Both the position numbers and the translations under genes were made by a program. A stretch of 64,000 nucleotides of DNA from Desulfobacterales bacterium (GTDB taxonomy: Bacteria; Desulfobacterota; Desulfobacteria; Desulfobacterales; UBA5616): the NCBI GenBank assembly GCA_046483495.1, contig JAWODC010000090.1, positions 32,001 through 96,000 of the forward strand, in the 5' to 3' direction. The stretch's first letter is position 1, and the number at the start of each line of letters is the position of its first letter. This document shows positions 3,100 to 41,513 of the stretch, in pieces. The notes under the pieces were generated by a model that saw nothing but the letters and a program-made list of their open reading frames with translations, searched no databases and had not been told where the DNA came from.

Positions 3100-3245
3100 T
3101 ACAAGCTATCTCAAAATAATCTTTTGTCCCAATATCTTCGTTTGAACCTCATGTCAAGTCATCAACATACATGAGTATGCCTGCGGCTTAACATGCGGTT
3201 TTGTCTTGATCTTGAACCAAAATATTTATTTTGGGATAGCTTGTA
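3100..3245. repeat. Palindromic ~146-bp element, terminus type C (MITE/REP-like)
   Basis: Terminal inverted repeats TACAAGCTATCTCAAAATAA ... TTATTTTGGGATAGCTTGTA. The core (TCAACATAC-atga-GTATGCCTGCGG, GTCTTGATCTTGAAC) aligns with four other copies in the window. Confidence 0.8.
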
Positions 3246-4965
3246 GTATGCGTTGCCGCAGCAAATGTTCGAGCCCATCGGAAAGGTGATGAATGCTTTT
3301 TAAAAAATAGAGGTGTCCGGGAGGAAAAAATTCCCTCAAAAAGTCCCGTGTCTGGCGGTTGCATCCACATCCGAGTGTCACCACGTCGATGGCGTGGCTT
3401 CGACAGTACCCAAGGGCTTCCCCAAGGCTCAAACCGCAATTGGCCGCACCATCCGTAATATGAATGATCAACCGGTTTTTTCCGCTCTTCTTCCGCAGCA
3501 TCGCTGCAGCCATTATGGCCTGTCCCGAGGGTGTCCGTCCCGAAGGCGTGACGGAATAAACGGTTTTGCCGTGATACAGCCGCGTCAACAGGCAGACATG
3601 CCGTTCCGCGTGATAGGCGTATATATCAAAAACATTCCCGTATCCCCGTGCGGCGGCTGCGAGGGATACAAAACTCTTTTCAGCGATTTCCCACGGCCTT
3701 CGCGACCGGCTGCCGGTGCGGCCCGGTTCCTCTTTGCCGCTCATGGATGCCGATGCATCCGCAACGATGCATATGTGCCGGTACTTGTCTTCTCCCGGTC
3801 CCTGCCTCTTTTTGAACACCTTGCCGTCAAGGGGCACCCGGTAAAGCCGCGCCGGGTCCAGTTTGCCCTCTTTCAGGCCTCGCCTGACGTGCCGAATGCG
3901 CGCCCGGCGGATCATCGAATCCTGCTTTTTAAAGATTTTTCTCAATCGTCGGACCTGAACGGCGTCAGGTGAAATGCTTGAAACCACTTCGCCTTTTACG
4001 AGCCGGGTTTCCATGGGGCGGGCTCCGGGTTCATCCACAGCAACGGCCGTGCTGTGCAATTTCAGCGGCTCTTCCTGAAGGTATGCATTCACCTCCTCGG
4101 CCAGTCCCTGACGAAGCCCCTGTGCAAATTCCGTCTCCTCACGGCCGTTCGAATCCTCATTTTCAGCGTCATCTTCCCCGATATCCACATTTTTTTCAGG
4201 ACCCGCTTCATCATACATATTCACCGCATCCGGGTTCAATGCAAACCGGCGCCATTGGGATACAACCGGTTCAACCTCATGCCACATCATTCGGTAAATG
4301 CCTGTTCTTTCTTTTCTTCTGGCGCTCATGGCATCGTGTGCCGCCACTGCCCGAATGCGTGCCCTATACGGCGCTAAAACGGCAAAAAGCTCCGTGTAAT
4401 AAAAATGAAGATGGTCCGGAATACGGCCGGTGAACCCGTAACCCTGCCAGACGGCGAACGCGCTTTCCGCAGTCGGGGGCAGGGCCGGATCTCTTGTGTT
4501 TTCCGAAAAGGCGCGGCGAAAAAACCGCGATAAATACAAGTGCCAAATGCTGTCTTTTACCAACTCATAAATGTAAATATTTTCCGAAGCGGTAACCAGG
4601 TTGTCGAGGTAAGGCATGGTATGCTCATCGAGGTTTTTAAACGGTGCCGCGGTATGTTTCCTCACCCATTCATGAAATTCCATGGCCAGAAACCCCTCAC
4701 GCACGACCTGGCCGACAAGCTGGTCGTACGTGTCGTGTGGGATCGGGTATTCCCCTTCTGTTTTTTCCGGATCCAGCAAAATAAAACGGCCGTCATCTGC
4801 AGTCATTCCTTTCCAGTATACGGGTTTGACGGCTTTTCCGATATGACCGGCCACCTTTCGCACGGCCCTTAAGGCAAGGGCCAATTCAGCGGTTTCATTG
4901 GAAGAGCGGTTGATGCGCCAATACTTGGAATAGCTCGTGGGCGTGATCGCCGGCGGTAAATTCAT
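3226..4965 (-). CDS. VWA-domain protein, BssF/AssF-like partner of the MoxR-type AAA+ ATPase
   Basis: MIDAS motif DASAS...TPSG...ITDG, preceded by GKLDPARLYR. The N-terminus YSKYWRINRS...LRAVRKVAGHIG resembles BssF-type proteins (from recall). ATGA overlap with the upstream AAA gene. Confidence 0.8.
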   Translation of the reverse strand: MNLPPAITPTSYSKYWRINRSSNETAELALALRAVRKVAGHIGKAVKPVYWKGMTADDGRFILLDPEKTEGEYPIPHDTYDQLVGQVVREGFLAMEFHEWVRKHTAAPFKNLDEHTMPYLDNLVTASENIYIYELVKDSIWHLYLSRFFRRAFSENTRDPALPPTAESAFAVWQGYGFTGRIPDHLHFYYTELFAVLAPYRARIRAVAAHDAMSARRKERTGIYRMMWHEVEPVVSQWRRFALNPDAVNMYDEAGPEKNVDIGEDDAENEDSNGREETEFAQGLRQGLAEEVNAYLQEEPLKLHSTAVAVDEPGARPMETRLVKGEVVSSISPDAVQVRRLRKIFKKQDSMIRRARIRHVRRGLKEGKLDPARLYRVPLDGKVFKKRQGPGEDKYRHICIVADASASMSGKEEPGRTGSRSRRPWEIAEKSFVSLAAAARGYGNVFDIYAYHAERHVCLLTRLYHGKTVYSVTPSGRTPSGQAIMAAAMLRKKSGKNRLIIHITDGAANCGLSLGEALGYCRSHAIDVVTLGCGCNRQTRDFLREFFPPGHLYFLKSIHHLSDGLEHLLRQRILQAIPK

Positions 4966-5822
4966 GATGCCGTGTCCGGCAGGTACAGGCAGTAGGATGC
5001 CTCTTCTGCTTGTGTTTCACCGGTTTCCACCTGAATGGAGAGCAAAAGCGATTCCAGTGTGTCAACGGAAATTTGCAGGCTGTAAATCAGGGCTTCACGA
5101 AGCGATGCGCCCATGGCGACCAACTCGGCCATCATAAGGCTATGCCGGATGGAGACCCGCATTTCGATCTGGTCGTTGTTGCGAATACGGTTGACTATTT
5201 TCAAAATCCGATCCGCCGCGGCCGCATCGATTCGGGTTTTTCGGATGAGCACTTCCTTTTCTATGGGTTGGGGCAAATATTCGAGGTGAACCCTGTAAAA
5301 CCGGTCCTTCAAGGCCTCATCCAAATCGTCCGTGCCGCTGAATGTCTCCCCTTCATTCATGGTTGCAAAAAACATCACCCCCGGTGCGACCTTGATCAAG
5401 CCCAGTTCGTCGATCCATATACTTCGGTCCTCGGATAATACGCTGAACAGTTCGTTCAGCGCATGCGGGCTTTCGGTCCGATTGATCTCCTCCAGATGAA
5501 TGACGCAACCCGGCGTCTGAATGGCCTTTGGAAAAAGAAATTCCTGAAAGTACGTTTCTCCGGATCTGAGCCGCTGCTGCCCGAAAAGCTGCCCCGCCTC
5601 GAGAAGCAGTCCAATCTGAAAGGTCGCCATGGGCCTGGTGCAGATATGGGCGAATTGCCTGACCAGAGAAGATTTTCCGCAGCCCTGGTTTCCCGTTATC
5701 AGAATATTCACCGGATGCGTTTCAGACATCCGGTGAAATCGTGCGAGATTCTCTTTGTCCGCTTTCAGAATAAAAAAGTGGGGATCGGGATCGGGTACTT
5801 TCAACTGACCGGATAAATCCAT
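4962..5822 (-). CDS. MoxR-family AAA+ ATPase, BssE/TutH/AssE-like
   Basis: Walker A GNQGCGKS; Walker B VIHLEEINR. The strings HPVNILI..QGCGKSSLVRQ, ATFQIG, FLFPKAIQTPGCVIHLEEINR and WIDELGL..VAPGV.FFAT match my recollection of TutH/BssE. Start placed at ATG 5822 after AAGGA. Confidence 0.85.
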   Translation of the reverse strand: MDLSGQLKVPDPDPHFFILKADKENLARFHRMSETHPVNILITGNQGCGKSSLVRQFAHICTRPMATFQIGLLLEAGQLFGQQRLRSGETYFQEFLFPKAIQTPGCVIHLEEINRTESPHALNELFSVLSEDRSIWIDELGLIKVAPGVMFFATMNEGETFSGTDDLDEALKDRFYRVHLEYLPQPIEKEVLIRKTRIDAAAADRILKIVNRIRNNDQIEMRVSIRHSLMMAELVAMGASLREALIYSLQISVDTLESLLLSIQVETGETQAEEASYCLYLPDTAS

Positions 5823-5861
5823 TATCGGGTATCCTTTCTGAAATGGATCATATCGGTGAAA

Positions 5862-5890
5862 AGTATACTGCAAGAGGTGAAAAAAGGCAA
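5862..5890 (-). promoter_or_regulatory. Putative sigma70 promoter of the BssE/BssF-like operon
   Basis: TTGCCT-17 nt-TATACT on the minus strand, about 40 nt upstream of the ATG. Confidence 0.6.
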
Positions 5891-5936
5891 ATAACATTTA
5901 AAAATGGTGGATACGGCCGGCATTCAGCCGAAGCAT

Positions 5937-32039: not shown

Positions 32040-33320
32040 TCAACCGGAAACTTCCCCTGCCGAGAGAACCGGCTCTGCAGTGAGCGTCGGCTTCAGATGG
32101 GCGACAGGTTTCAGCAGAACGGCTATCGTTCCGCAAAGCAGCATCAGCGGTATCAAAAAATAAAAGACGGGTAAATACGAATGATAGGCGTCATATACGT
32201 ATCCGGCACCGACCGGACCGATTGCTCCGCCGATGGTCCCCATAATATTCAGAATGCCGAACAGCGTGGCGAAATGTTTCACACCCAGGTATTCTCCCGC
32301 CAACAGCGGGTTGATCACCAGCGGTGCGCCGCACGATAACCCGTAAATACTCGCAAAAACCAGCACGATCCAGTAAGGAACGGCCATGATGAGAAACACG
32401 ATCGAAATGCAAAACAAGAGACATGAAAGGGCCATGGCATATTTAGCACCCCACCGGTCCGCCATCGGTCCGAAGACGACCTTCCCGATAACCATGACGC
32501 CCATAACCATACTCCAGGCAAACGCCGCCCGTGTGGGTGAATGGCCGATATCCGTCAGGTACGCGACGCAGTGATTTGCCAGCCCGCCGTAAGCGATCGA
32601 AATGATAAGCATGATCGCGGCAATCTGCCAGAACACTCGTAAAGAAAATGCCTCTTTGACGGTGACACCCCATTCAGGCTCCTCGGAAACGGCGGCCGCT
32701 GTTTTGTGCCGGTAGGGTTTTAATCCGATTTCTCTGGGATGGGTTCGGATGACCAGGAGAATCAGCGGCACAACCACCACCAGCACCGTACTTCCGCTGA
32801 ATACGAAAGCGGTTCGCCACCCGTAATTGACGATGATCCAATTCGCCACCGGCGACATGATCATGCCGCCGAAACTCGTGCCGACAAAAGCGGCGCTCAT
32901 CGCCGCTCCGCGCCGCGAGACAAACCAGTTCGAGATGAGAAGAGAGCAGGGAATAATTGTGGAGCACATCAACCCCAGGCCGATAAAACCGAACAGCACG
33001 TAGAGGTGCCAGAGTTCCGTAATACGACTTGCGACAATGATGGCGACGCCCACGACGGCCGCTCCGATGGTCATGACCCGTTTGGCCCCGATTCGATCGA
33101 TCAGGACACCGGCAAACGGGGAAGCCACGGCGGACACGACCGAACCCACCAGCAGGGCGATGGACAATTCGCCCCGGCCCCAATTCATGCTGACAGCAAT
33201 GGGCTTGAGAAATACAGGGAAGGTATTGAACACCACCCCCCAGAGAAAAAACAGAATGAAAAAGCAGGCGGCGACAATGAAAAAACCATAAAAAAAACGT
33301 GGTGAATCCGACGATTTCAT
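32040..33320 (-). CDS. MFS transporter (OFA/monocarboxylate-like)
   Basis: 12 TM helices; motif A GVLIDRIGAK; NWF..RRG and GWRTAF. Confidence 0.9.
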   Translation of the reverse strand: MKSSDSPRFFYGFFIVAACFFILFFLWGVVFNTFPVFLKPIAVSMNWGRGELSIALLVGSVVSAVASPFAGVLIDRIGAKRVMTIGAAVVGVAIIVASRITELWHLYVLFGFIGLGLMCSTIIPCSLLISNWFVSRRGAAMSAAFVGTSFGGMIMSPVANWIIVNYGWRTAFVFSGSTVLVVVVPLILLVIRTHPREIGLKPYRHKTAAAVSEEPEWGVTVKEAFSLRVFWQIAAIMLIISIAYGGLANHCVAYLTDIGHSPTRAAFAWSMVMGVMVIGKVVFGPMADRWGAKYAMALSCLLFCISIVFLIMAVPYWIVLVFASIYGLSCGAPLVINPLLAGEYLGVKHFATLFGILNIMGTIGGAIGPVGAGYVYDAYHSYLPVFYFLIPLMLLCGTIAVLLKPVAHLKPTLTAEPVLSAGEVSG

Positions 33321-33353
33321 GGGCGGATCTCCTTTATTAAAACGGGTTATATA

Positions 33354-35027
33354 CTATTCGCCCGGTCCCCTGCCCTCCGTTTGGACTTCCAGTACGTAAG
33401 GCGTGTTGCCGGCAAAGGCCTCCCGCAGGGCCGGCTGCAATTCCTCCGGCTTCATTACTTTTCGGCCTTTAACCCCCATGCTGCCGGCCAATTCGACAAA
33501 ATCGATCGGCGGCTTTGTAAAATCCATGTGAGCATAAGGCGTTTCGGTGTCGATATGCTGAAGCGTGACATACCGGTTCATGTTGTATTTTAAAATTCTG
33601 TAGCCCCGGTTGGCCAGGATAACATACACTACCGGAATGTCATGGTGGGCGGCGGTCCACAAGCTCTGGATGGTGTACATGGCGGAACCGTCGCCGACCA
33701 AAGCAACGACAGGCCGCTCCGGATGTGCCAACTTGACGCCGATTGCCCCGGGCATTCCCTGTCCGATGCCGCCGCCGTGGTTCCCATAGAGTGTCCCCGG
33801 CCGATCGAACGGGATCACGGACAGCAGGTCGATATAGGCGGTTATCGCCTCGTTGTAAACCACTGCATTTTCCGGCAGGCACTCTTTTAAATCGGACATC
33901 AAACGAACCGGAGAAATGGGGACAGCGCCTCTTTTTTTGTCGGCGTTCTCGGCCGTCATCTTCCGGATATGCTCCTTTTGAACAGCCATTGCTTCAGCTC
34001 TTCTTTGAGCATCGCTTCGCACATCGGAACTCATTTTCTCCGCCAGATGTTTTTCGAGCAACGCCAATCCCTGTTTGGGATCTGCCAGTATTCCGATTTC
34101 GACCGGCAGGTTTTTGCCGATTTCCCAGGCAGCGGCGTCCAACTGAATCAGCTTGCAGCCCTCCGGCAGCGGAGACCCTTCACCGTAAAATACCGCCTCG
34201 AAAAGCCGGGCGCCCACCGCGAGAACCACGTCGGTGTCGCCGAGCATCTCGCGGGTTATGGATGCCTCTCCGGGAAGCAAACCCTGAAAATGAGGATGCG
34301 ACGTGGGAAAATTCAGCGCCCCCATCATCAGCGTGTTCCAAACCGGTGCCCCGAGCACTTCCGACATCCGGACCAGTTCATCGAATGCTTTCGACGCGGA
34401 TACGCCGTCACCGCATATGATTGCCGGCGATTTCGCCTGCAGCAGGAGATCCGCCGCCGCCTCTACTGCGCCGGGCCCCGGACGCATGTCCCGGTGATAC
34501 TTCCCCGGATCCGGAATTTCTTCTGTGAGATCGTCATCCAGAACATCCGCCGGGAGAGCGACGAATACCGGCCCTCGAGGTGGATCTTGAGCGATTTTGA
34601 ACGCCCGTGACATGACCACGGGAATGTCTTTTGCGTGCTGAATCTGAACAGACCACTTGGTCAACGGTTTAGCGATTTCCGCCAAATCGTGGGAAAGAAG
34701 GGGCTCCTGAATGAGCATTCGGCTGTCCTGCTGCCCGGCCGTGACCACGAGAGGCATTTTTCCCATGGCCGCATTATAAAGAGAGCCCATCGCGTTTCCT
34801 AACCCGGGCGCCACGTGCAAATTAACGACACCGGTCCGGCCTGAAGCATTGGCGTACATGTGGGCGATGGTCAGGGCAACCGCCTCCTGAAGGGTCAAAA
34901 TATAGCGTATGCTCGGATGTCCGTGAAGCGCCGTAATCAGCCCGAACTCTGTTGTCCCCGGATTTCCGAACACATACGCCACGTCGTGTTTTTCCAGAAC
35001 TTTGACAACCGCGTCTCTGCCTTTCAT
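33354..35027 (-). CDS. ThDP-dependent decarboxylase, benzoylformate decarboxylase-like
   Basis: Motifs VFGNPGTTE, LQEAVA and NLHVAPGLGNAMG; ThDP motif GDGSAMYTIQSLWTAA...N. Confidence 0.88.
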   Translation of the reverse strand: MKGRDAVVKVLEKHDVAYVFGNPGTTEFGLITALHGHPSIRYILTLQEAVALTIAHMYANASGRTGVVNLHVAPGLGNAMGSLYNAAMGKMPLVVTAGQQDSRMLIQEPLLSHDLAEIAKPLTKWSVQIQHAKDIPVVMSRAFKIAQDPPRGPVFVALPADVLDDDLTEEIPDPGKYHRDMRPGPGAVEAAADLLLQAKSPAIICGDGVSASKAFDELVRMSEVLGAPVWNTLMMGALNFPTSHPHFQGLLPGEASITREMLGDTDVVLAVGARLFEAVFYGEGSPLPEGCKLIQLDAAAWEIGKNLPVEIGILADPKQGLALLEKHLAEKMSSDVRSDAQRRAEAMAVQKEHIRKMTAENADKKRGAVPISPVRLMSDLKECLPENAVVYNEAITAYIDLLSVIPFDRPGTLYGNHGGGIGQGMPGAIGVKLAHPERPVVALVGDGSAMYTIQSLWTAAHHDIPVVYVILANRGYRILKYNMNRYVTLQHIDTETPYAHMDFTKPPIDFVELAGSMGVKGRKVMKPEELQPALREAFAGNTPYVLEVQTEGRGPGE

Positions 35028-35064
35028 AAATGATACTCTCCGCATGTAAGGTTCATCGGTCATA

Positions 35065-35898
35065 TCACACAACCATTCCGCCGTTCGGACTGATCACTTG
35101 ACCCACAAAGAAATCGGCGTCATCGGTTGACAGGAAAACCACCGCATTGGCGATTTCCCCGGGTTTTCCCATTCTCCCGATAGGTTTGCGTGAGGTGATA
35201 ATCGCTTTCACTTCAGGAGACATCGTATCCAAAAGCGGCGTATCGACATATCCCGGTGCAACGGCATTCACGTTGATGCCGGAGGCGATCACCTCGAGGG
35301 CCACGGACTTTGTAAATGCGATAATACCGCCCTTGGCCGCGGAATAGGAAGGCGCTCCGGGGCATCCCTGCATGCCGCAGATCGACGCCATGTTGATAAT
35401 TTTGCCACGCCTTTTTTCTTCCATAATTTTCAATGCTTCCCGGGTGCAGTAAAACGTGCCGTTTAAATGCACATCGATCATGCTGTGCCAGTACTCGTCC
35501 TTAAACGAAGACGTCACCCGCATGCCGTCCTGCGCCTTGCCAAGCGTTGCCGTTTCTTCCGTCATGCGCACATAAGTGGCGTTCACGGCGTCCGTGAATT
35601 CCTTCCAGTCGGCACGTGCGCTGAATCCCGCATTGTTCACCAGGATGTCAAGGGTTCCCCACCGGGACACCAATTCCTCGAACATGGCCCTTACCTGATC
35701 CACATTTCCGACATCCGCCTGAAGCCCGATGGCTTGAGCTCCGTTTTCTTTCAGCATGGAAAGCGTTTTTTCGATGCCGTCCGGATTGATATCGTTTACT
35801 GCGATGCAAGCTCCCTCGGCGGCCATTTGCCGGGCGATAGTCCTTCCGAATCCGGACCCCGAACCGGTGATCAGGGCCACTCTGTCTTTCAGCTTCAT
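35065..35898 (-). CDS. Short-chain dehydrogenase/reductase
   Basis: Motifs TGSGSGFG, LVNNAG, YSAAK and NAVAPG. Confidence 0.93.
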   Translation of the reverse strand: MKLKDRVALITGSGSGFGRTIARQMAAEGACIAVNDINPDGIEKTLSMLKENGAQAIGLQADVGNVDQVRAMFEELVSRWGTLDILVNNAGFSARADWKEFTDAVNATYVRMTEETATLGKAQDGMRVTSSFKDEYWHSMIDVHLNGTFYCTREALKIMEEKRRGKIINMASICGMQGCPGAPSYSAAKGGIIAFTKSVALEVIASGINVNAVAPGYVDTPLLDTMSPEVKAIITSRKPIGRMGKPGEIANAVVFLSTDDADFFVGQVISPNGGMVV

Positions 35899-36123
35899 CA
35901 GTTCTCCTTTCGTTGAAGATCGGCTGATTTATTGAAATCGAATTGTTTTTCTGCTGCTGCAATTCGTGCAGTGTTTTTCGCAAAGAGAATACGATATGTC
36001 CGGTCCAAAGCGAAGGAAGCGGACCATCGGTGCGGATCCGTTTCATATAGCGAATTTCACGGAAGAACACAAATCGAATTGCAAGGGATGAACGGTTTGT
36101 CCAGCATTGAACATCAGACGATG

Positions 36124-37008
36124 TCAATCGTCCTTCGGGTCCACGTGAACGAGAACCTTATCCACTTGTCTGACATCCCGAATAATGCAGGTTTCCACCG
36201 TTTTGGCGATATCATGCCCCCGGCTGACGCTCATTCGCCCATCCACTACCACATGGATCTCCATCTGCAAATGCCCTGCCAGGCTGCGAACCCTTAAATC
36301 GTGCACATCGAGAACACCGTTTACAGACAGTGAACAAGCCTTGATTTTATCGACAATTTCCTCTGGGGGTGCCGTATCCGTGATCTCCCTAAACGTGCTG
36401 GTAATTATTTCCACCGCTATTTTAGCGATAAAGAAGGCGACAACCAGGGCGGCAACCGAATCTAGAAAATACCATGAAGGATTTACGATAGCGCCGGTTA
36501 CTCCGATGAGAACGGCTATCGACGAAAGGGAGTCGGTTCTATGATGCCATGCATTTGCAATAATCAGCTGATTGCCGAGGCGCTTTCCGATGTAAACGGT
36601 GTATCGGTACATTGCCTCTTTCAGGACAATGGAAACAGCGGCTCCGGCAATCGCCGTAATCGTGGGATGCCGAATCTGCTTTTCGTAGATATCTGTGATC
36701 GCCTCCACACCGATAAAAGCACCCGTTGCCAGGAGAACCAGACCCACACCGGCGGAAGCCATTGTCTCTATTCTGCCGTGGCCGAAATGATGCTCCGAGT
36801 CCGGTGGTTTTCCACCCATTTGCAGCCCCAGCAGCACCACGACATCGGTAAATAGGTCCGATACCGAGTGCACGGCATCGGCAATCAATGCCCGGCTGTC
36901 CCCGAAAACACCGGCAGCCGCTTTCAGCAGGATCAAAAGGCTGTTGACGGCAAGTCCGGCAACCGTCACCCTTCTTCCGGCATTTTGGTGAATCGTGTTA
37001 CGGGTCAT
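36124..37008 (-). CDS. Cation diffusion facilitator (FieF-like)
   Basis: Motifs ADAVHSVSD, HHFGHGRIE, AWHHRTD and VHVDP. Confidence 0.92.
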   Translation of the reverse strand: MTRNTIHQNAGRRVTVAGLAVNSLLILLKAAAGVFGDSRALIADAVHSVSDLFTDVVVLLGLQMGGKPPDSEHHFGHGRIETMASAGVGLVLLATGAFIGVEAITDIYEKQIRHPTITAIAGAAVSIVLKEAMYRYTVYIGKRLGNQLIIANAWHHRTDSLSSIAVLIGVTGAIVNPSWYFLDSVAALVVAFFIAKIAVEIITSTFREITDTAPPEEIVDKIKACSLSVNGVLDVHDLRVRSLAGHLQMEIHVVVDGRMSVSRGHDIAKTVETCIIRDVRQVDKVLVHVDPKDD

Positions 37009-37304: not shown

Positions 37305-37333
37305 TTGTCTTGCCAATCCGCCAAATCTATACT
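37305..37333 (+). promoter_or_regulatory. Putative sigma70 promoter of the CbbQ/NorQ-type operon
   Basis: TTGTCT-17 nt-TATACT. Confidence 0.55.
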
Positions 37334-37458
37334 ATTAATTAAACAGTGCCGTTCGTAAACGGCTGGCACCTCCATTTCCGCGTTGATCCGGACCTGAGCC
37401 CCGACACATCCATCTCAAGCTGATACGCCACTTTTGACTTTCACAGGACAAAAAAACC

Positions 37459-38289
37459 ATGACCGAGGCAATCCGAAATATTCGAATCGATGAAAAAAGC
37501 TTTGAAATTACTACGGAGCCGTTTTATCTGCCGCAAGCCGGTGAAATGTTTTTATTCGAGGCGGCCTATAATAATCAACTGCCGGTAATGCTCAAGGGGC
37601 CTACCGGCAGCGGGAAAACCCGGTTGATCGAGCACATGGCCTGGAAATTGAAACGCCCCTTGTACACCGTTGCCTGCCATGATGACCTGAGCGCCAATGA
37701 TCTGGTCGGCCGTTACATCATCGTCGGGGACGAGGTGGAATGGATCGACGGTCCTCTGTTGATGGCCCTGAAGAACGGCGGCATCGTTTACCTTGACGAA
37801 ATTGTGGAGGCCAGAAAAGACACCACCGTTGTGATTCATCCCCTCACGGACCATCGCCGGTACCTGCATGTCGAGAAGCTGGGAAAAATATTCACCGCCA
37901 GAGACGAATTTATGCTGGTCATCAGCTACAATCCGAATTACCAGAGTATCGTCAAGGAGCTCAAACCCAGCACACGTCAGCGTTTTGTGACCATCGACCT
38001 GACCTGGCCCGAAGAGGAGCTCGAAATCCGGATCATCATTCAGGAAACCGGGGTCGACCGGACAACAGCCCGGAATCTGGTAAAGGCCGCCGGTAAAATT
38101 CGGCATCTCACGCACCAGGGGCTTGAAGAAGGTGTTTCGACCCGCGAACTGGTATATGCGGGGCTGCTGCTGAAAAGCGGGGTCGCACCCAAAGATGCGC
38201 TCTATGCCACTCTGGTGGAATCGCTGACCCATGACACGGACCTCAAGGAAGGCATAACAGAAGTGCTGAAAAATTATTTTCATTTTTAG
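37459..38289 (+). CDS. CbbQ/NirQ/NorQ-family AAA+ ATPase
   Basis: Motifs EPFYLP, LKGPTGSGKTR, VACHDDLSANDLVGR, YLDEIVEARKDTTVVIHPLTDHRR, SYNP.YQ, STRQRF and EGVSTR. Confidence 0.95.
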   Translation: MTEAIRNIRIDEKSFEITTEPFYLPQAGEMFLFEAAYNNQLPVMLKGPTGSGKTRLIEHMAWKLKRPLYTVACHDDLSANDLVGRYIIVGDEVEWIDGPLLMALKNGGIVYLDEIVEARKDTTVVIHPLTDHRRYLHVEKLGKIFTARDEFMLVISYNPNYQSIVKELKPSTRQRFVTIDLTWPEEELEIRIIIQETGVDRTTARNLVKAAGKIRHLTHQGLEEGVSTRELVYAGLLLKSGVAPKDALYATLVESLTHDTDLKEGITEVLKNYFHF

Positions 38290-39657
38290 ATGGTGTCCTG
38301 TCGAATTATGGATCCGAACATAGCCCATAAAAACCCCGAAACATTCGCCGGAACGTTTTCCACGGTCGATGAACGTTCATCTTTGGACGATCTCCTGGTG
38401 TCGGTCTCACGTTCGCTTTCCAAACAGGGATCGGACATCCCGGGAAAGGTAAGGCGGCTTGGCAGCCAAATTTCCCGGTACAGCCTGAAAACAGCAGCCG
38501 GGATGATCGTATGCAGCCCCGGAATCGTTGACCGGGTCGGCTTCCAGGGGCTCGAAAAAATTTCCCGTATCGGCATCGGGCTTTCCCGGAACTGTTGGGT
38601 AACCGCCGTGGAAATGTTCAAGAACAGTCCCGGATTGATTGACGTCCTCATGCCGATGGGGGGACGCAAACTGGTCCTGGATGTATATGAGCTGAGTGAG
38701 CGGGTCTGCCCATACAGCTGGAAAACCGCTGCCGGAATGCTGGACAGCAGCCCCTCGATCATCCGGCGGGTGGGCATCGAAGGGCTATACGCGATTGCGG
38801 AAATGGGGATACGGATAGCCCCGGGATGCTGGTTGACCGCTATGGGAAATTTCGAAAAAAGCCCGCGGCTTATCGACCGGCTGTCACGTTACTGCGACAA
38901 AGAAATGATCATGGATGTTTTGGACTTAGGCGCCGCAGCATCACATACCAGTTGGCAAATGGCCGTCCGCCTCATGGAAGAAAGCCCGGCGCTTATCAGC
39001 CGTGTCGGGTTTTCCGGGCTTCAAAAAATGGCGATTTTCGGTGGAAAGATTGCACGGCACAGTTGGCTCGGTGCCGTAGAAATGATTGAAAGAAGCACGG
39101 TACTCATCGATGATATCCTCGATCTCGGAACGGCATCGCTGGTGCTTGAAATTTGCGACACCTGCGGGCGGGCGGCGGATGTGTGTTGGCGTACCGCCGT
39201 TCACCTGTTTTACAAAAGTCCCTTTCTTATCGATCGTGTCGGAACGGCGGGATTTCAGCATGTGGCAGAGAAAGCCTGTGAACTGGCACAAAGCAATACG
39301 GAAAGGGCCGTTTCCTTCATAAACGGGGAATCGTTGGAGGGCGCCTCATTTATGGCCGGCATTTCGGACGGCATCGCGCTTTCGGAAGTGAAACCGATTC
39401 TTGCCAATTACCTCAATGCACTGTTGAGTTACCGCATTGAAATCGCCGGGGCCGTGGGTCACGCAACCGACGGGCGCAAGATTTTTCTTCCCGAAAGCGT
39501 GAACGATTTCAATGAGAAGAAGAAAAATTTCATGATGTATAAAATATACGCCACCCATGAAGAGGCCCACCTGGAATACGGCAGTTTCGACTTTTCCCTT
39601 TCCGAAATCCGGGAAACCGTGGATAACATCACCGCCCGTTATGGGAAACGGTCATGA
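38290..39657 (+). CDS. Helical-repeat protein ending in the N-terminal zincin-like segment of NorD/CbbO (HExxH)
   Basis: Seven repeats of [SC]W.TA..(M/F)..SP.LI alternating 37 and 41 aa; then TDGRKIFLP...THEEAHLEYGSF. Start could be 38290 or 38308. Confidence 0.8.
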   Translation: MVSCRIMDPNIAHKNPETFAGTFSTVDERSSLDDLLVSVSRSLSKQGSDIPGKVRRLGSQISRYSLKTAAGMIVCSPGIVDRVGFQGLEKISRIGIGLSRNCWVTAVEMFKNSPGLIDVLMPMGGRKLVLDVYELSERVCPYSWKTAAGMLDSSPSIIRRVGIEGLYAIAEMGIRIAPGCWLTAMGNFEKSPRLIDRLSRYCDKEMIMDVLDLGAAASHTSWQMAVRLMEESPALISRVGFSGLQKMAIFGGKIARHSWLGAVEMIERSTVLIDDILDLGTASLVLEICDTCGRAADVCWRTAVHLFYKSPFLIDRVGTAGFQHVAEKACELAQSNTERAVSFINGESLEGASFMAGISDGIALSEVKPILANYLNALLSYRIEIAGAVGHATDGRKIFLPESVNDFNEKKKNFMMYKIYATHEEAHLEYGSFDFSLSEIRETVDNITARYGKRS

Positions 39658-41369
39658 ACGGTGCAACCGATATCGAGACGTTTTTTCAGCTTTTTCCCGA
39701 ACCGAATATGGCCCGGGATCTTTTCAATATCCTCGAGGATTTCAGGATCGAGTCGCGAATAAAAGACGAATACCCCGTTCTGGGAGAACAGGTCATCGAG
39801 GTCAACCTGTTCCTGCTGAATCGGCGGCCGGACTTAGACGACATGGCCGGCGACAAGCAGCGGATCGTCGAAATCATCGGGCAGTGGCTCACCACTGGAA
39901 AAACGAAACAGGATGTTCCCCCCCGTCTATTATCGCTCTTTGAATTCGCCCAGGCCCTTGCCGGAAAATTGGAAACCCCGCGATCATCGATTCATGATGC
40001 GGCCGCCGTCGCTTCGGAAATGTATTTCAGCATCGATGACGCCTTTCCCAAGGATGCCTACCGTCCGGTTCTTCCTTTTTCCGCTTTTATCGACCCGATG
40101 AAAACCGACAGCTATGATGCACGGCTCGGCGGCAAAGACGGTTCCAAAAGCCGTTCAGAAGCAGAACCCGAGGATAAAGACGCATCCCGACCCCCTGCGA
40201 ATGCGGCTCCTATGGAAGACCGCACCCCGCCGGTGTCACATCGTTCCGATACCGCAACCGAAGACCATCGAGAACCGGTGTTCCGGCCTTCGGATCTGCC
40301 GGAATTCGAAGCGGAAAACCCGGCCGAAGATGCCGAAGAACCCAAAAAGCGTTCCAAACGTCTGCTATTCGGCGAAGACGGCATGCAGCCGGATGATATG
40401 GACGCTGCAGATCCATTTCCGAGCGAGGCGCCGTCACGGCCCGCTGTCCCGGAATTGAGATCCTCTTCTGCAACGGGAGAGGAGCTGGAGGCGGCCCCCA
40501 TCAGCTGCCTTTACCCGGAATGGGGCGTCGATATCGAAGGCTACCGCGTCAATTGGGCACGCGTGACAGAGCGCCGGTTGTCCGGCGGATCGGAAGATTT
40601 TTACCGTAGCACATTGACCAAGTACGCCGGACTGGTGAAGAAAATCAAACGGGAATTCCAGATGCTGAGACCCGAGGGTGTGATCAAGTTCAAACGACAG
40701 GTCGATGGAAATGAGATCGATCTCGATGCCGCCGTGGAATATTTCATCGATCGAAAACTGGGGATCACCCCGTCGGAAAAAAATTATATTCGCACCCGAA
40801 AAAGCAGCCGGGACATTGCGGTCGCCTTCCTTTTGGACATGAGCGGAAGCACCCGGGGCACCGCCATTTCCCTGGAAAAGGAGGCATTGATCATCCTGTC
40901 GGAAGCGTTGCACGAACTCGGCGATACGTTCTCGATATACGGCTTTTCCGGCCACACGAGGGAAAATGTGGAATTTTTCGTCATCAAGGATTTCCTGGAG
41001 CCTTATGACCATCGGATCACCAGGAAAATATCGGCGATACGCGACCTTCACAGCACCCGTATCGGTCCCGCCATCCGTCATACCCATACCAAACTAGGCA
41101 GGCGTGAGGAAAAATTCAAACTTTTGATACTGTTGAGTGACGGAAAACCCGAAGACAGCGGATACAACGACGCCTATGGAATTGAAGATACCCGTATGGC
41201 ATTGAAGGAAGGTTTACAACAGGGAATACGGCCGTTCTGTATCACAATCGATGCGGCTGCACCGGAATACCTGCACCGGATGTACAGCCACAGCAATTGG
41301 GTGGTGATCCAAAAAATGGAAAAGCTTCCCCTGGAAATTACCCGGGTATACAAGCGCTTAACCACTTAG
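39654..41369 (+). CDS. NorD/CbbO-like VWA protein (C-terminal part of the adaptor)
   Basis: ARDLFNILEDFRIE, an acidic linker, YPEW and DGNEIDLDA; MIDAS DMSGST...STRIG...LSDGKP; YGIEDTRMA. Confidence 0.9.
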   Translation: MNGATDIETFFQLFPEPNMARDLFNILEDFRIESRIKDEYPVLGEQVIEVNLFLLNRRPDLDDMAGDKQRIVEIIGQWLTTGKTKQDVPPRLLSLFEFAQALAGKLETPRSSIHDAAAVASEMYFSIDDAFPKDAYRPVLPFSAFIDPMKTDSYDARLGGKDGSKSRSEAEPEDKDASRPPANAAPMEDRTPPVSHRSDTATEDHREPVFRPSDLPEFEAENPAEDAEEPKKRSKRLLFGEDGMQPDDMDAADPFPSEAPSRPAVPELRSSSATGEELEAAPISCLYPEWGVDIEGYRVNWARVTERRLSGGSEDFYRSTLTKYAGLVKKIKREFQMLRPEGVIKFKRQVDGNEIDLDAAVEYFIDRKLGITPSEKNYIRTRKSSRDIAVAFLLDMSGSTRGTAISLEKEALIILSEALHELGDTFSIYGFSGHTRENVEFFVIKDFLEPYDHRITRKISAIRDLHSTRIGPAIRHTHTKLGRREEKFKLLILLSDGKPEDSGYNDAYGIEDTRMALKEGLQQGIRPFCITIDAAAPEYLHRMYSHSNWVVIQKMEKLPLEITRVYKRLTT

Positions 41370-41513
41370 TACCCATCCAGAAATGGCTGATTCGCTCCAT
41401 TTCGGCGTTGGCCGGGTAATTTTAATCCTCAAAATACTCAATGTATTCGTGCGGTTAAAATTTCCCGGCCGCCTTGAACGGAATCGAATTATCTCATTTC
41501 TGGATGGATACCA
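41367..41513 (+). repeat. Palindromic ~147-bp element, terminus type A (copy 3)
   Basis: TAGTACCCATCCAGAAATGG ... CATTTCTGGATGGATACCA; begins at the TAG stop of the VWA gene. Confidence 0.9.

Follow-up and report, generated by a model that had tools for sequence, protein, structure and literature searches.

What does a CbbQ/NorQ-type ATPase do in a genome in which neither of the group's known clients was found? This question is raised by a three-gene operon in a stretch of 64,000 nucleotides (nt; hereafter the window) from a Desulfobacterales bacterium (GTDB UBA5616; assembly GCA_046483495.1, contig JAWODC010000090.1, positions 32,001 to 96,000). In the literature consulted, clients have been demonstrated for this group only in the Rubisco and nitric oxide reductase systems. 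An earlier reading made from the letters alone (the sequence-only reading) had described the operon as a stand-alone unit with a split adaptor, and had proposed to search the genome for norB and Rubisco, to place the ATPase in a phylogeny and to survey the neighborhoods of its homologues. Open reading frames (ORFs), translations and profile scans were re-derived from the window letters, and 52 ORFs were scanned. Considering all the evidence, we put the probability at about 0.72 that the three genes encode an ATP-driven enzyme remodeller which would work in the manner of CbbQO and NorQD, would belong to a separate clade, and would reassemble its N-terminal anchor domain from two chains. The parts of the operon, in window positions and with lengths in amino acids (aa), are as follows.

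37459..38289, + strand: gene 1, a CbbQ/NirQ/NorQ-type MoxR AAA+ ATPase, 276 aa, with PF07728 and PF08406
38290..39657 (longest ORF; probable start 38308), + strand: gene 2, the N-terminal adaptor part, 449-455 aa, with the same end point in homologues
38362..39321, + strand: alpha-solenoid arm of gene 2, seven alternating helical-hairpin units of 37-41 aa, residues ~25-344, aligned by eye
39322..39654, + strand: first half of a CbbO/CobT-type N-terminal domain, with HEEAH at 39556-39570
39654..39657, + strand: ATGA stop/start overlap, the fission point
39654..41369, + strand: gene 3, the second adaptor part, 571 aa, with PF00092 (VWA)
39735-39752, + strand: EDFRIE, in the second half of the N-terminal domain (~150 conserved residues with ILEDFRIE) of gene 3
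~40104-40493, + strand: acidic, Pro-rich linker of gene 3, 25% Asp/Glu
~40671-40814, + strand: putative pore finger of gene 3, a region that aligns with NorD
40836-40850, + strand: DMSGS (residue 395) of the gene 3 VWA domain (PF00092), which with T468 and SDG (D496) completes a full adhesion site of the metal ion-dependent type (MIDAS)

Gene 1 matched PF07728 (AAA_5, 110.5 bits) and PF08406 (CbbQ_C, 91.8 bits), both above the cut-off, and it is these two families by which the CbbQ group is defined in the available text of PMC4633670. By its sequence gene 1 is a member of the CbbQ/NirQ/NorQ group of MoxR ATPases. Its matches to the solved structures of NorQ (9qh4/9qhd) and CbbQ (5c3c/6l1q) had E values of 1e-89 to 4e-87 with nearly equal scores. 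The expected motifs were all found, namely Walker A (GPTGSGKT), the H2 insert (GRYII), Walker B (IVYLDE), sensor 1 (SYNP), the arginine finger (STRQRF) and sensor 2 (STREL).

The phylogeny that the sequence-only reading had proposed was obtained as a quick maximum-likelihood tree of 92 ATPases with Shimodaira-Hasegawa-like approximate likelihood ratio test (SH-aLRT) supports. Gene 1 fell in a clade of 38 rows (SH-aLRT 100, stem 1.21). The clade label was assigned by identity, with three norCB-linked NorQ and one carboxysome-linked CbbQ as references, so only the branch support counts as independent. The three NorQ formed a branch of their own (98), the branch holding the CbbQ had a support of 97, and the gene 1 clade lay outside both. 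Its sister relation to the NorQ branch received a support of only 64, and deeper relations were weakly supported. The two CbbQ-like paralogues of the source genome also fell outside the clade. The clade takes in archaeal loci at ~75% ATPase identity, some of which have mtrH next to them or cdhC in the vicinity; NCBI gives the name Halobacteriota archaeon to two gene 2 homologues. In the phylum the clade was rare: strong matches occurred in 7 of 400 sampled genomes, all in one genus and all with a fused adaptor. Among five other genomes of the source family, three carried a locus of the clade, in each case split. As judged from this tree, the ATPase is one of a separate, long-branched clade of anaerobic bacteria and archaea, apart from both NorQ and CbbQ.

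The adaptor is where the operon departs most from expectation. No Pfam family matched gene 2, and BLAST alignment of its product with itself gave no internal match. AlphaFold2 modelled the arm with a predicted local distance difference test score (pLDDT) mostly >90, which dropped to 53-75 in the C-terminal stretch of ~110 residues. Foldseek returned no match to gene 2 at E up to 0.001, and a wide structural search found generic helical repeats only (best Z 10.6, to a designed protein), with the C-terminal part barely covered. This tail of ~110 residues after the solenoid ends in HEEAH-LEYGSF; among 38 sequences H423, E425, A426 and H427 were invariant and E424 was conserved in >=90%. The HEEAH aligns with HCAAH of CbbO, whose arm the gene 2 arm matches weakly. 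Gene 3 was more readily placed: residues 283-571 matched CbbO at probability 100 and NorD (9qhd) at E 3e-43, and PF11775 was matched as well. The motifs quoted by the sequence-only reading were all present, with TDG..IFLP, HEEAH (423-427) and YGSF in gene 2 and ILEDFRIE (26-33) in gene 3. It had called gene 3 NorD-like, and the VWA domain and finger region do align with NorD, but the overall build of the adaptor is closer to CbbO. The spacing from HExxH to EDxRxE was 58 residues in a fused orthologue and 25 in CbbO, and the cut lies in the insertion of ~33 residues. From these alignments gene 2 is read as the front half of a CbbO-type adaptor that has been cut inside its N-terminal domain. The joined N-terminal domain of a natural fused homologue was nearest to the N-terminal clusters of CobT (PF06213; 157 features shared, score 0.91), so its resemblance to CobT by language-model features may serve as a lead. 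A single-sequence fold of a fused homologue reached a pLDDT of only 41.

Is the cut natural? In three relatives (G001, G002 and G004) the identical ATGA overlap was kept at 55-73% protein identity. The ratios of nonsynonymous to synonymous substitution rates (dN/dS) against G001 were ~0.035, 0.11 and 0.10 for genes 1, 2 and 3, with dS near saturation. Because the overlap is kept in three relatives and all three genes have low dN/dS, the split is a natural fission and not an error. Twelve further database proteins (433-462 aa) matched at least 90% of gene 2, and the five inspected share its end point. The adaptor was also followed in a metagenome set of 51 loci (L046-L096), which head the best 80 of 103 matches: 28 were fused, 11 were split with the two genes adjacent, and in 12 gene 2 stopped at this point and no gene 3 was seen behind it. 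Some of these states were assigned by eye, as fused in L073, L083, L087, L088, L089, L091, L094, L095 and L064 (which ends at the contig end) and as split in L093. The ATGA overlap was seen at 12 of the 14 adjacent split loci displayed. Six lone copies of gene 2 had dN/dS of 0.14-0.27 (15 pairs), which indicates purifying selection.

Fused forms are therefore common in relatives, since besides the 28 of 51 loci, genes 2 and 3 are a single ORF in 7 of 7 genomes from a different family within the phylum, and both paralogues of the source genome have a fused adaptor. The sequence-only reading had held that homologues with a single ORF would speak against the split; such homologues do exist, and the split is nevertheless no artefact. 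Its claim that the adaptor is cut in two was borne out, as fused loci contain genes 2 and 3 as collinear halves whose junction takes up just a few residues. Three genes do make up the operon, as it proposed, but no novel type of subunit is involved, since the third component is the front half of an adaptor encoded elsewhere by one ORF. Split and fused forms are intermixed on the tree. The fused L047 and L069 retain a Met and an MNG start at the join, which suggests that some fused forms may be re-fusions. On the Miltoncostaea oceani plasmid NZ_CP064358.1 (L159 5998-9708), where the ATPase belongs to another branch, the adaptor is annotated as two genes with the same cut position, and this recurrence makes the site look prone to fission. 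The gene 3 of L159 apparently has no ATG at the overlap.

The client was sought in the genome itself and in the company that the operon keeps. The source assembly (4.19 Mb, 96.7% complete) carries dsrA and aprA. Three NorB queries gave no match in it at E up to 1, and the sole PF00115 match was a cytochrome c oxidase subunit I beside a subunit II-like gene. This subunit I, encoded at G000:C70 (L001 418-3959) in a sulfate reducer, is extended far beyond the usual C-terminus. Rubisco (PF00016) had no match in the source genome or in 5 of 5 family genomes, with the control positive in 5 of 14. The proposed search thus found neither norB nor Rubisco in the source genome, and the window, as had been said, holds no nor, nir or cbb family among its scanned ORFs. 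The description of the operon as stand-alone and without a known client stands in this respect, but its orphan status is not unusual. CbbQ-like ATPases were found in 32 of 40 hand-picked genomes of the phylum, with the clade orthologue in exactly the 10 expected, and the source genome has two further CbbQ-like pairs, whose adaptors are fused and measure ~900 and ~1000 aa and which have no evident client next to them. Given these two pairs and the 32 genomes, orphan CbbQ-like genes are ordinary in this phylum. The paralogous pairs (G000:C82:4975-8574 and G000:C11, L008 6947-10957) have fused adaptors that lack HExxH, and both types occur across the family.

The neighborhood survey, in which the neighbors of 55 loci were clustered into families, showed that neighbors vary and none is conserved. 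The largest families were acetate-CoA-ligase-like proteins (10 loci), cation diffusion facilitator (CDF) transporters (9), major facilitator superfamily (MFS) transporters (6), and MtrH, nitroreductase and radical S-adenosylmethionine (SAM) proteins (5 each). Three of these families were examined as candidate clients in 10 genomes that carry the module and 30 that do not. Nitroreductase, the only flavoenzyme neighbor tested, was rejected, being present in 7 of 10 carriers, in none of G001, G002 and G004, and in 8 of 30 non-carriers; the acetate-CoA-ligase-like orthologue (at least 55% identity) was rejected with 3 of 10 carriers. A radical SAM orthologue (at least 59% identity) occurred in 9 of 10 carriers and, among the non-carriers, in 6 of 30, and is a gene neighbor in 5 bacterial loci. 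Because the carriers represent two lineages and hence kinship, and because this orthologue is present in both family members without the module and was seen in none of the archaeal loci, the radical SAM protein (G000:C68:16089-17174) is a weak lead. A second panel comprised five carriers (G000, G001, G004, G323 and G175). AprA was found in 2 of 5 and DsrA in 3 of 5, with two 100%-complete genomes lacking both, while MtrH and CobN (PF02514) were found in 0 of 5; these absences mean that none of the four can be a shared client. Acetyl-CoA synthase, found in 4 of 5 in a comparison of carriers only, is still a candidate. A 460-aa match to the acetyl-CoA synthase beta subunit, of archaeal length, lies at G000:C29:18432-19667 besides a 751-aa bacterial form. 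On an Aestuarium plasmid (L164 2867-7020), CbbQ and CbbO-like genes directly follow the aliphatic amidase gene amiE, possibly a further client. A scan of genome contigs that used only gene 2 as query yielded 1 locus.

How, then, might the three products work together? [quoted passage not shown] In CbbO, as far as the available part of PMC4660213 describes it, residues 1-444 bind the ring and the MIDAS binds the client. Every element of NorQD and CbbQO has a counterpart here, the MIDAS, finger region and C-terminus of gene 3 aligning with NorD and CbbO, and from this we infer the same cycle. Gene 1 would form a hexamer, as in the known systems; the finger of gene 3 would enter its pore and the gene 3 C-terminus would dock on the post-sensor-1 loop, while the MIDAS would hold the client by a carboxylate. 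The final ~110 residues of the gene 2 product would reassemble non-covalently with the initial ~150 of the gene 3 product into the N-terminal domain, which would anchor on the outside of the ring, with the helical arm of gene 2 as a second grip and the source of specificity. ATP hydrolysis would then rotate the VWA domain, stretch the acidic linker and force apart a soluble enzyme whose gene lies elsewhere; this might release an inhibitor, or allow a metal to be inserted or exchanged. That this enzyme belongs to the oxygen- or metal-labile Fe-S or metal enzymes has, if the remodeller reading holds, about even odds. The metallo- or flavo-enzyme of anaerobic catabolism that the sequence-only reading had suggested as client is plausible.

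Several observations weigh against this proposal. No client was found, and no neighbor family exceeded 10 of 55 loci. The match of gene 2 to CbbO was weak (probability 24, E 0.0009). The last Thr of the NorQ-type motif GRxL/IxxxxT, of which GRxL/I is largely kept, is Val in gene 1, and the Walker A cysteine of NorQ is replaced in the clade, by Ser in 35 of 38. Among the 12 lone gene 2 loci, three lay at contig ends and nine had 0.7-10 kb downstream with no gene 3, some of these nine also without gene 1; the components can thus occur apart from one another, and gene 2 may have a separate function. Finally, contigs from RNA runs (151-306 nt) on gene 1, gene 2 and the CDF gene do not demonstrate transcription.

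The conserved residues of the N-terminal domain could also be taken for a working metal site across the chains, made of His423 and His427 of gene 2 and Glu28 of gene 3, which would serve an insertase as metal donor or, less likely, be a zincin-type protease, with the two-gene build as a control. We consider this unlikely, and as a special case it would be compatible with the remodeller. HxxxH was found in 58 of 61 clade loci and the full HEEAH in 38 of 61 and in all 12 split clade tree rows; E28 and R31 of gene 3 were invariant in 41 sequences; and the genes have CDF transporters in their vicinity in three lineages, and bacterioferritin in a single lineage. The HExxH-type motif plus Glu is here presumed to correspond to zincin ligands. 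Yet in 20 of 61 loci Gln or Leu stands where a protease would have its catalytic Glu, which speaks against proteolysis, and no Pfam peptidase family was matched at E up to 1. The CDFs are of different subfamilies, FieF/MamB-like here and ZitB-like in others, and CbbO also keeps HCAAH and EDARVE with no metal role reported in the text consulted. A fuller version is slightly more doubtful: the metal site would form only when the two His of the arm subunit meet the one Glu of the VWA subunit, the arm would be an exchangeable, separately encoded specificity subunit, and the metal would be delivered to, or exchanged in, an unrecognised anaerobic metalloenzyme of sulfate reducers, syntrophs and methane-cycling archaea, conceivably the radical SAM protein.

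The three remaining explanations concern the split and the client, and all are far less probable. Programmed frameshifting or readthrough could yield one fused protein from genes 2 and 3, given that fusion is widespread and that the frame step at the junction is usually -1. This is very improbable: junctions occur in three frames (the ATGA overlap, a longer overlap in L046 and an in-frame TAA-ATG in L066), no slippery run was seen in the gene 2 frame at the junction, and gene 2 is also found without an adjacent gene 3 and under purifying selection. A ribosome-binding signal precedes the ATG of gene 3, with -7 to -14 kcal/mol at most archaeal-type junctions but only -3.5 to -5.9 in the source family. 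An assembly error or pseudogene would be suspected because one added base joins the frames, as L052 (split) and L056 (fused) differ in this way, and because none of the listed read contigs bridged the junction; the overlap conserved in the three relatives at near-saturated dS and the shared end point of the database proteins leave this hardly credible. Hardly more can be said for the view that the genes simply assist a nitric oxide reductase or a Rubisco whose genes lie at another place in the genome. Gene 1 is ~53-55% identical to NorQ and 51% to CbbQ, G001 has a 775-aa NorB-like protein of the size of a quinol-dependent nitric oxide reductase, and the assembly is 96.7% complete. Against it stand the empty NorB and PF00016 searches, a sole PF00115 match that is an oxidase, and the position of the ATPase outside the NorQ and CbbQ branches.

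The surroundings of the operon were largely as the sequence-only reading had described them. The divergent CDF gene (PF01545) and the convergent ABM gene (PF03992) were both matched by Pfam, and its promoter-like signal is present as a candidate:

37305..37338, + strand: putative sigma-70-like promoter, TTGTCT-17-TATACT at 37305-37333, 9/12 consensus match

Three further promoter-like sites lie on the opposite strand, with 0.6 sites expected from shuffles, and in 4 of 4 aligned orthologous loci a stretch resembling CTTG..AAAT.TR.AAT was found upstream, in the corresponding position. The tight coupling that had been described holds for the ATGA overlap, but the 0-nt gap between genes 1 and 2 exists only for the longest ORF. 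In the database annotation gene 2 is 449 aa long, beginning at residue 7; the stronger ribosome-binding signal is that of the ATG at 38308 (-6.3 against -0.3 kcal/mol for the longest-ORF start); and the gap in relatives is 3, 38 and at least 105 nt; for these reasons gene 2 probably starts at 38308 rather than 38290. Upstream, the order thiamine pyrophosphate enzyme, short-chain dehydrogenase/reductase, MFS, CDF (window 32040-37008) is conserved in G001 and G002, and by eye an apparent corrinoid methyltransferase gene adjoins the CDF in G001 and G004. Directly after the gene 3 stop lies a 140-bp element (window 41370-41510) with terminal inverted repeats that form one long hairpin. It has 188 BLAST pieces in the genome, 132 of >=100 bp, with some copies counted on both strands; read depth peaks at the element, which resembles a miniature inverted-repeat transposable element or a repetitive extragenic palindrome.

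What the locus adds is a bacterial split lineage, a CbbO-type origin of the arm, a recurrent cut and a list of excluded clients. In the literature searched, which excludes most subscription papers, neither this clade nor a split CbbO or NorD is described. The class of mechanism is already known, and the variation lies in the split adaptor and the separate clade. The ~75% ATPase identity held between bacteria and archaea suggests that the client is conserved and belongs to anaerobic metabolism; orphan CbbQ-like ATPases in 32 of 40 genomes stand against two systems with a demonstrated client. The naturally split adaptor may also be a tool, since its arm and motor-binding halves are separable and could be swapped to probe the two-grip twisting model of NorQD set out in the accessible portion of PMC13036017.

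Two more distant MoxR/VWA pairs on the source contig look, in our estimation, more like BssE/BssF than genes 1-3 do. A pair in the window (3226-5897, - strand) consists of a second, more distant MoxR ATPase (AAA_5, weak CbbQ_C) and a 579-aa degenerate VWA partner with a 4-nt overlap, and is convergent with a 2-hydroxyacyl-CoA dehydratase-type pair. A related pair outside the window, at G000:C56:20083-22638, has a partner with HEALH (HExxH), lies downstream of an apparent glycyl-radical activating enzyme, and presumably resembles bssE/bssF. BssE/BssF of the benzylsuccinate synthase clusters, as far as the available text of PMC7285207 goes, are an AAA+/VWA pair of uncertain function in anaerobes, a likeness taken from their description; unlike genes 1-3, they lie in the operon of their client. 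The CobS/CobT cobaltochelatase motor shares a MoxR-type motor with a VWA partner, CobT-like N-terminal features and the PF11775 match. Its motor is nevertheless far more distant (E 1e-6, far below the cut-off), the models were scarcely matched (TIGR01650 27.9/558 bits, TIGR01651 17.2/759 bits), and CobN is missing from all five carriers.

The closest relatives are the two characterised systems. NorQ/NorD, the FeB insertase of the nitric oxide reductase dependent on cytochrome c (cNOR) in Paracoccus and Jhaorihella (available parts of PMC13036017 and PMC9976466; 9qh4-9qhg), gave the best structural-database match (motor E 1e-89, finger-VWA E 3e-43), and NorD shares the acidic linker between N-terminal domain and VWA. 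Unlike genes 2 and 3, however, NorD has neither a helical arm nor the HxxxH/EDxRxE motifs; no norCB was found here, and a Cys46-Cys68 redox pair is impossible, with Ser at the first position. CbbQ/CbbO (Acidithiobacillus ferrooxidans, PMC4660213; Halothiobacillus CsoCbbQ, PMC4633670, both as available in part; 5c3c, 6l1q) shares the AAA_5 plus CbbQ_C motor, and CbbO of Nitrobacter has the same order as genes 2 and 3, from the arm through HCAAH, EDARVE and the linker to a C-terminal VWA with full MIDAS. The CbbO-type layout proved collinear, weakly in the N-part and strongly in the C-part (probabilities as above), but is here carried by two genes. The arm of CbbO is shorter; here it has seven units, and fused relatives, which reach ~1500 aa, have many more. 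No Rubisco was found here, and the ATPase forms a separate clade. Judged by sequence, genes 1-3 are a member of the CbbQ/NorQ group that appears to work like CbbQO and NorQD and is a member of neither.

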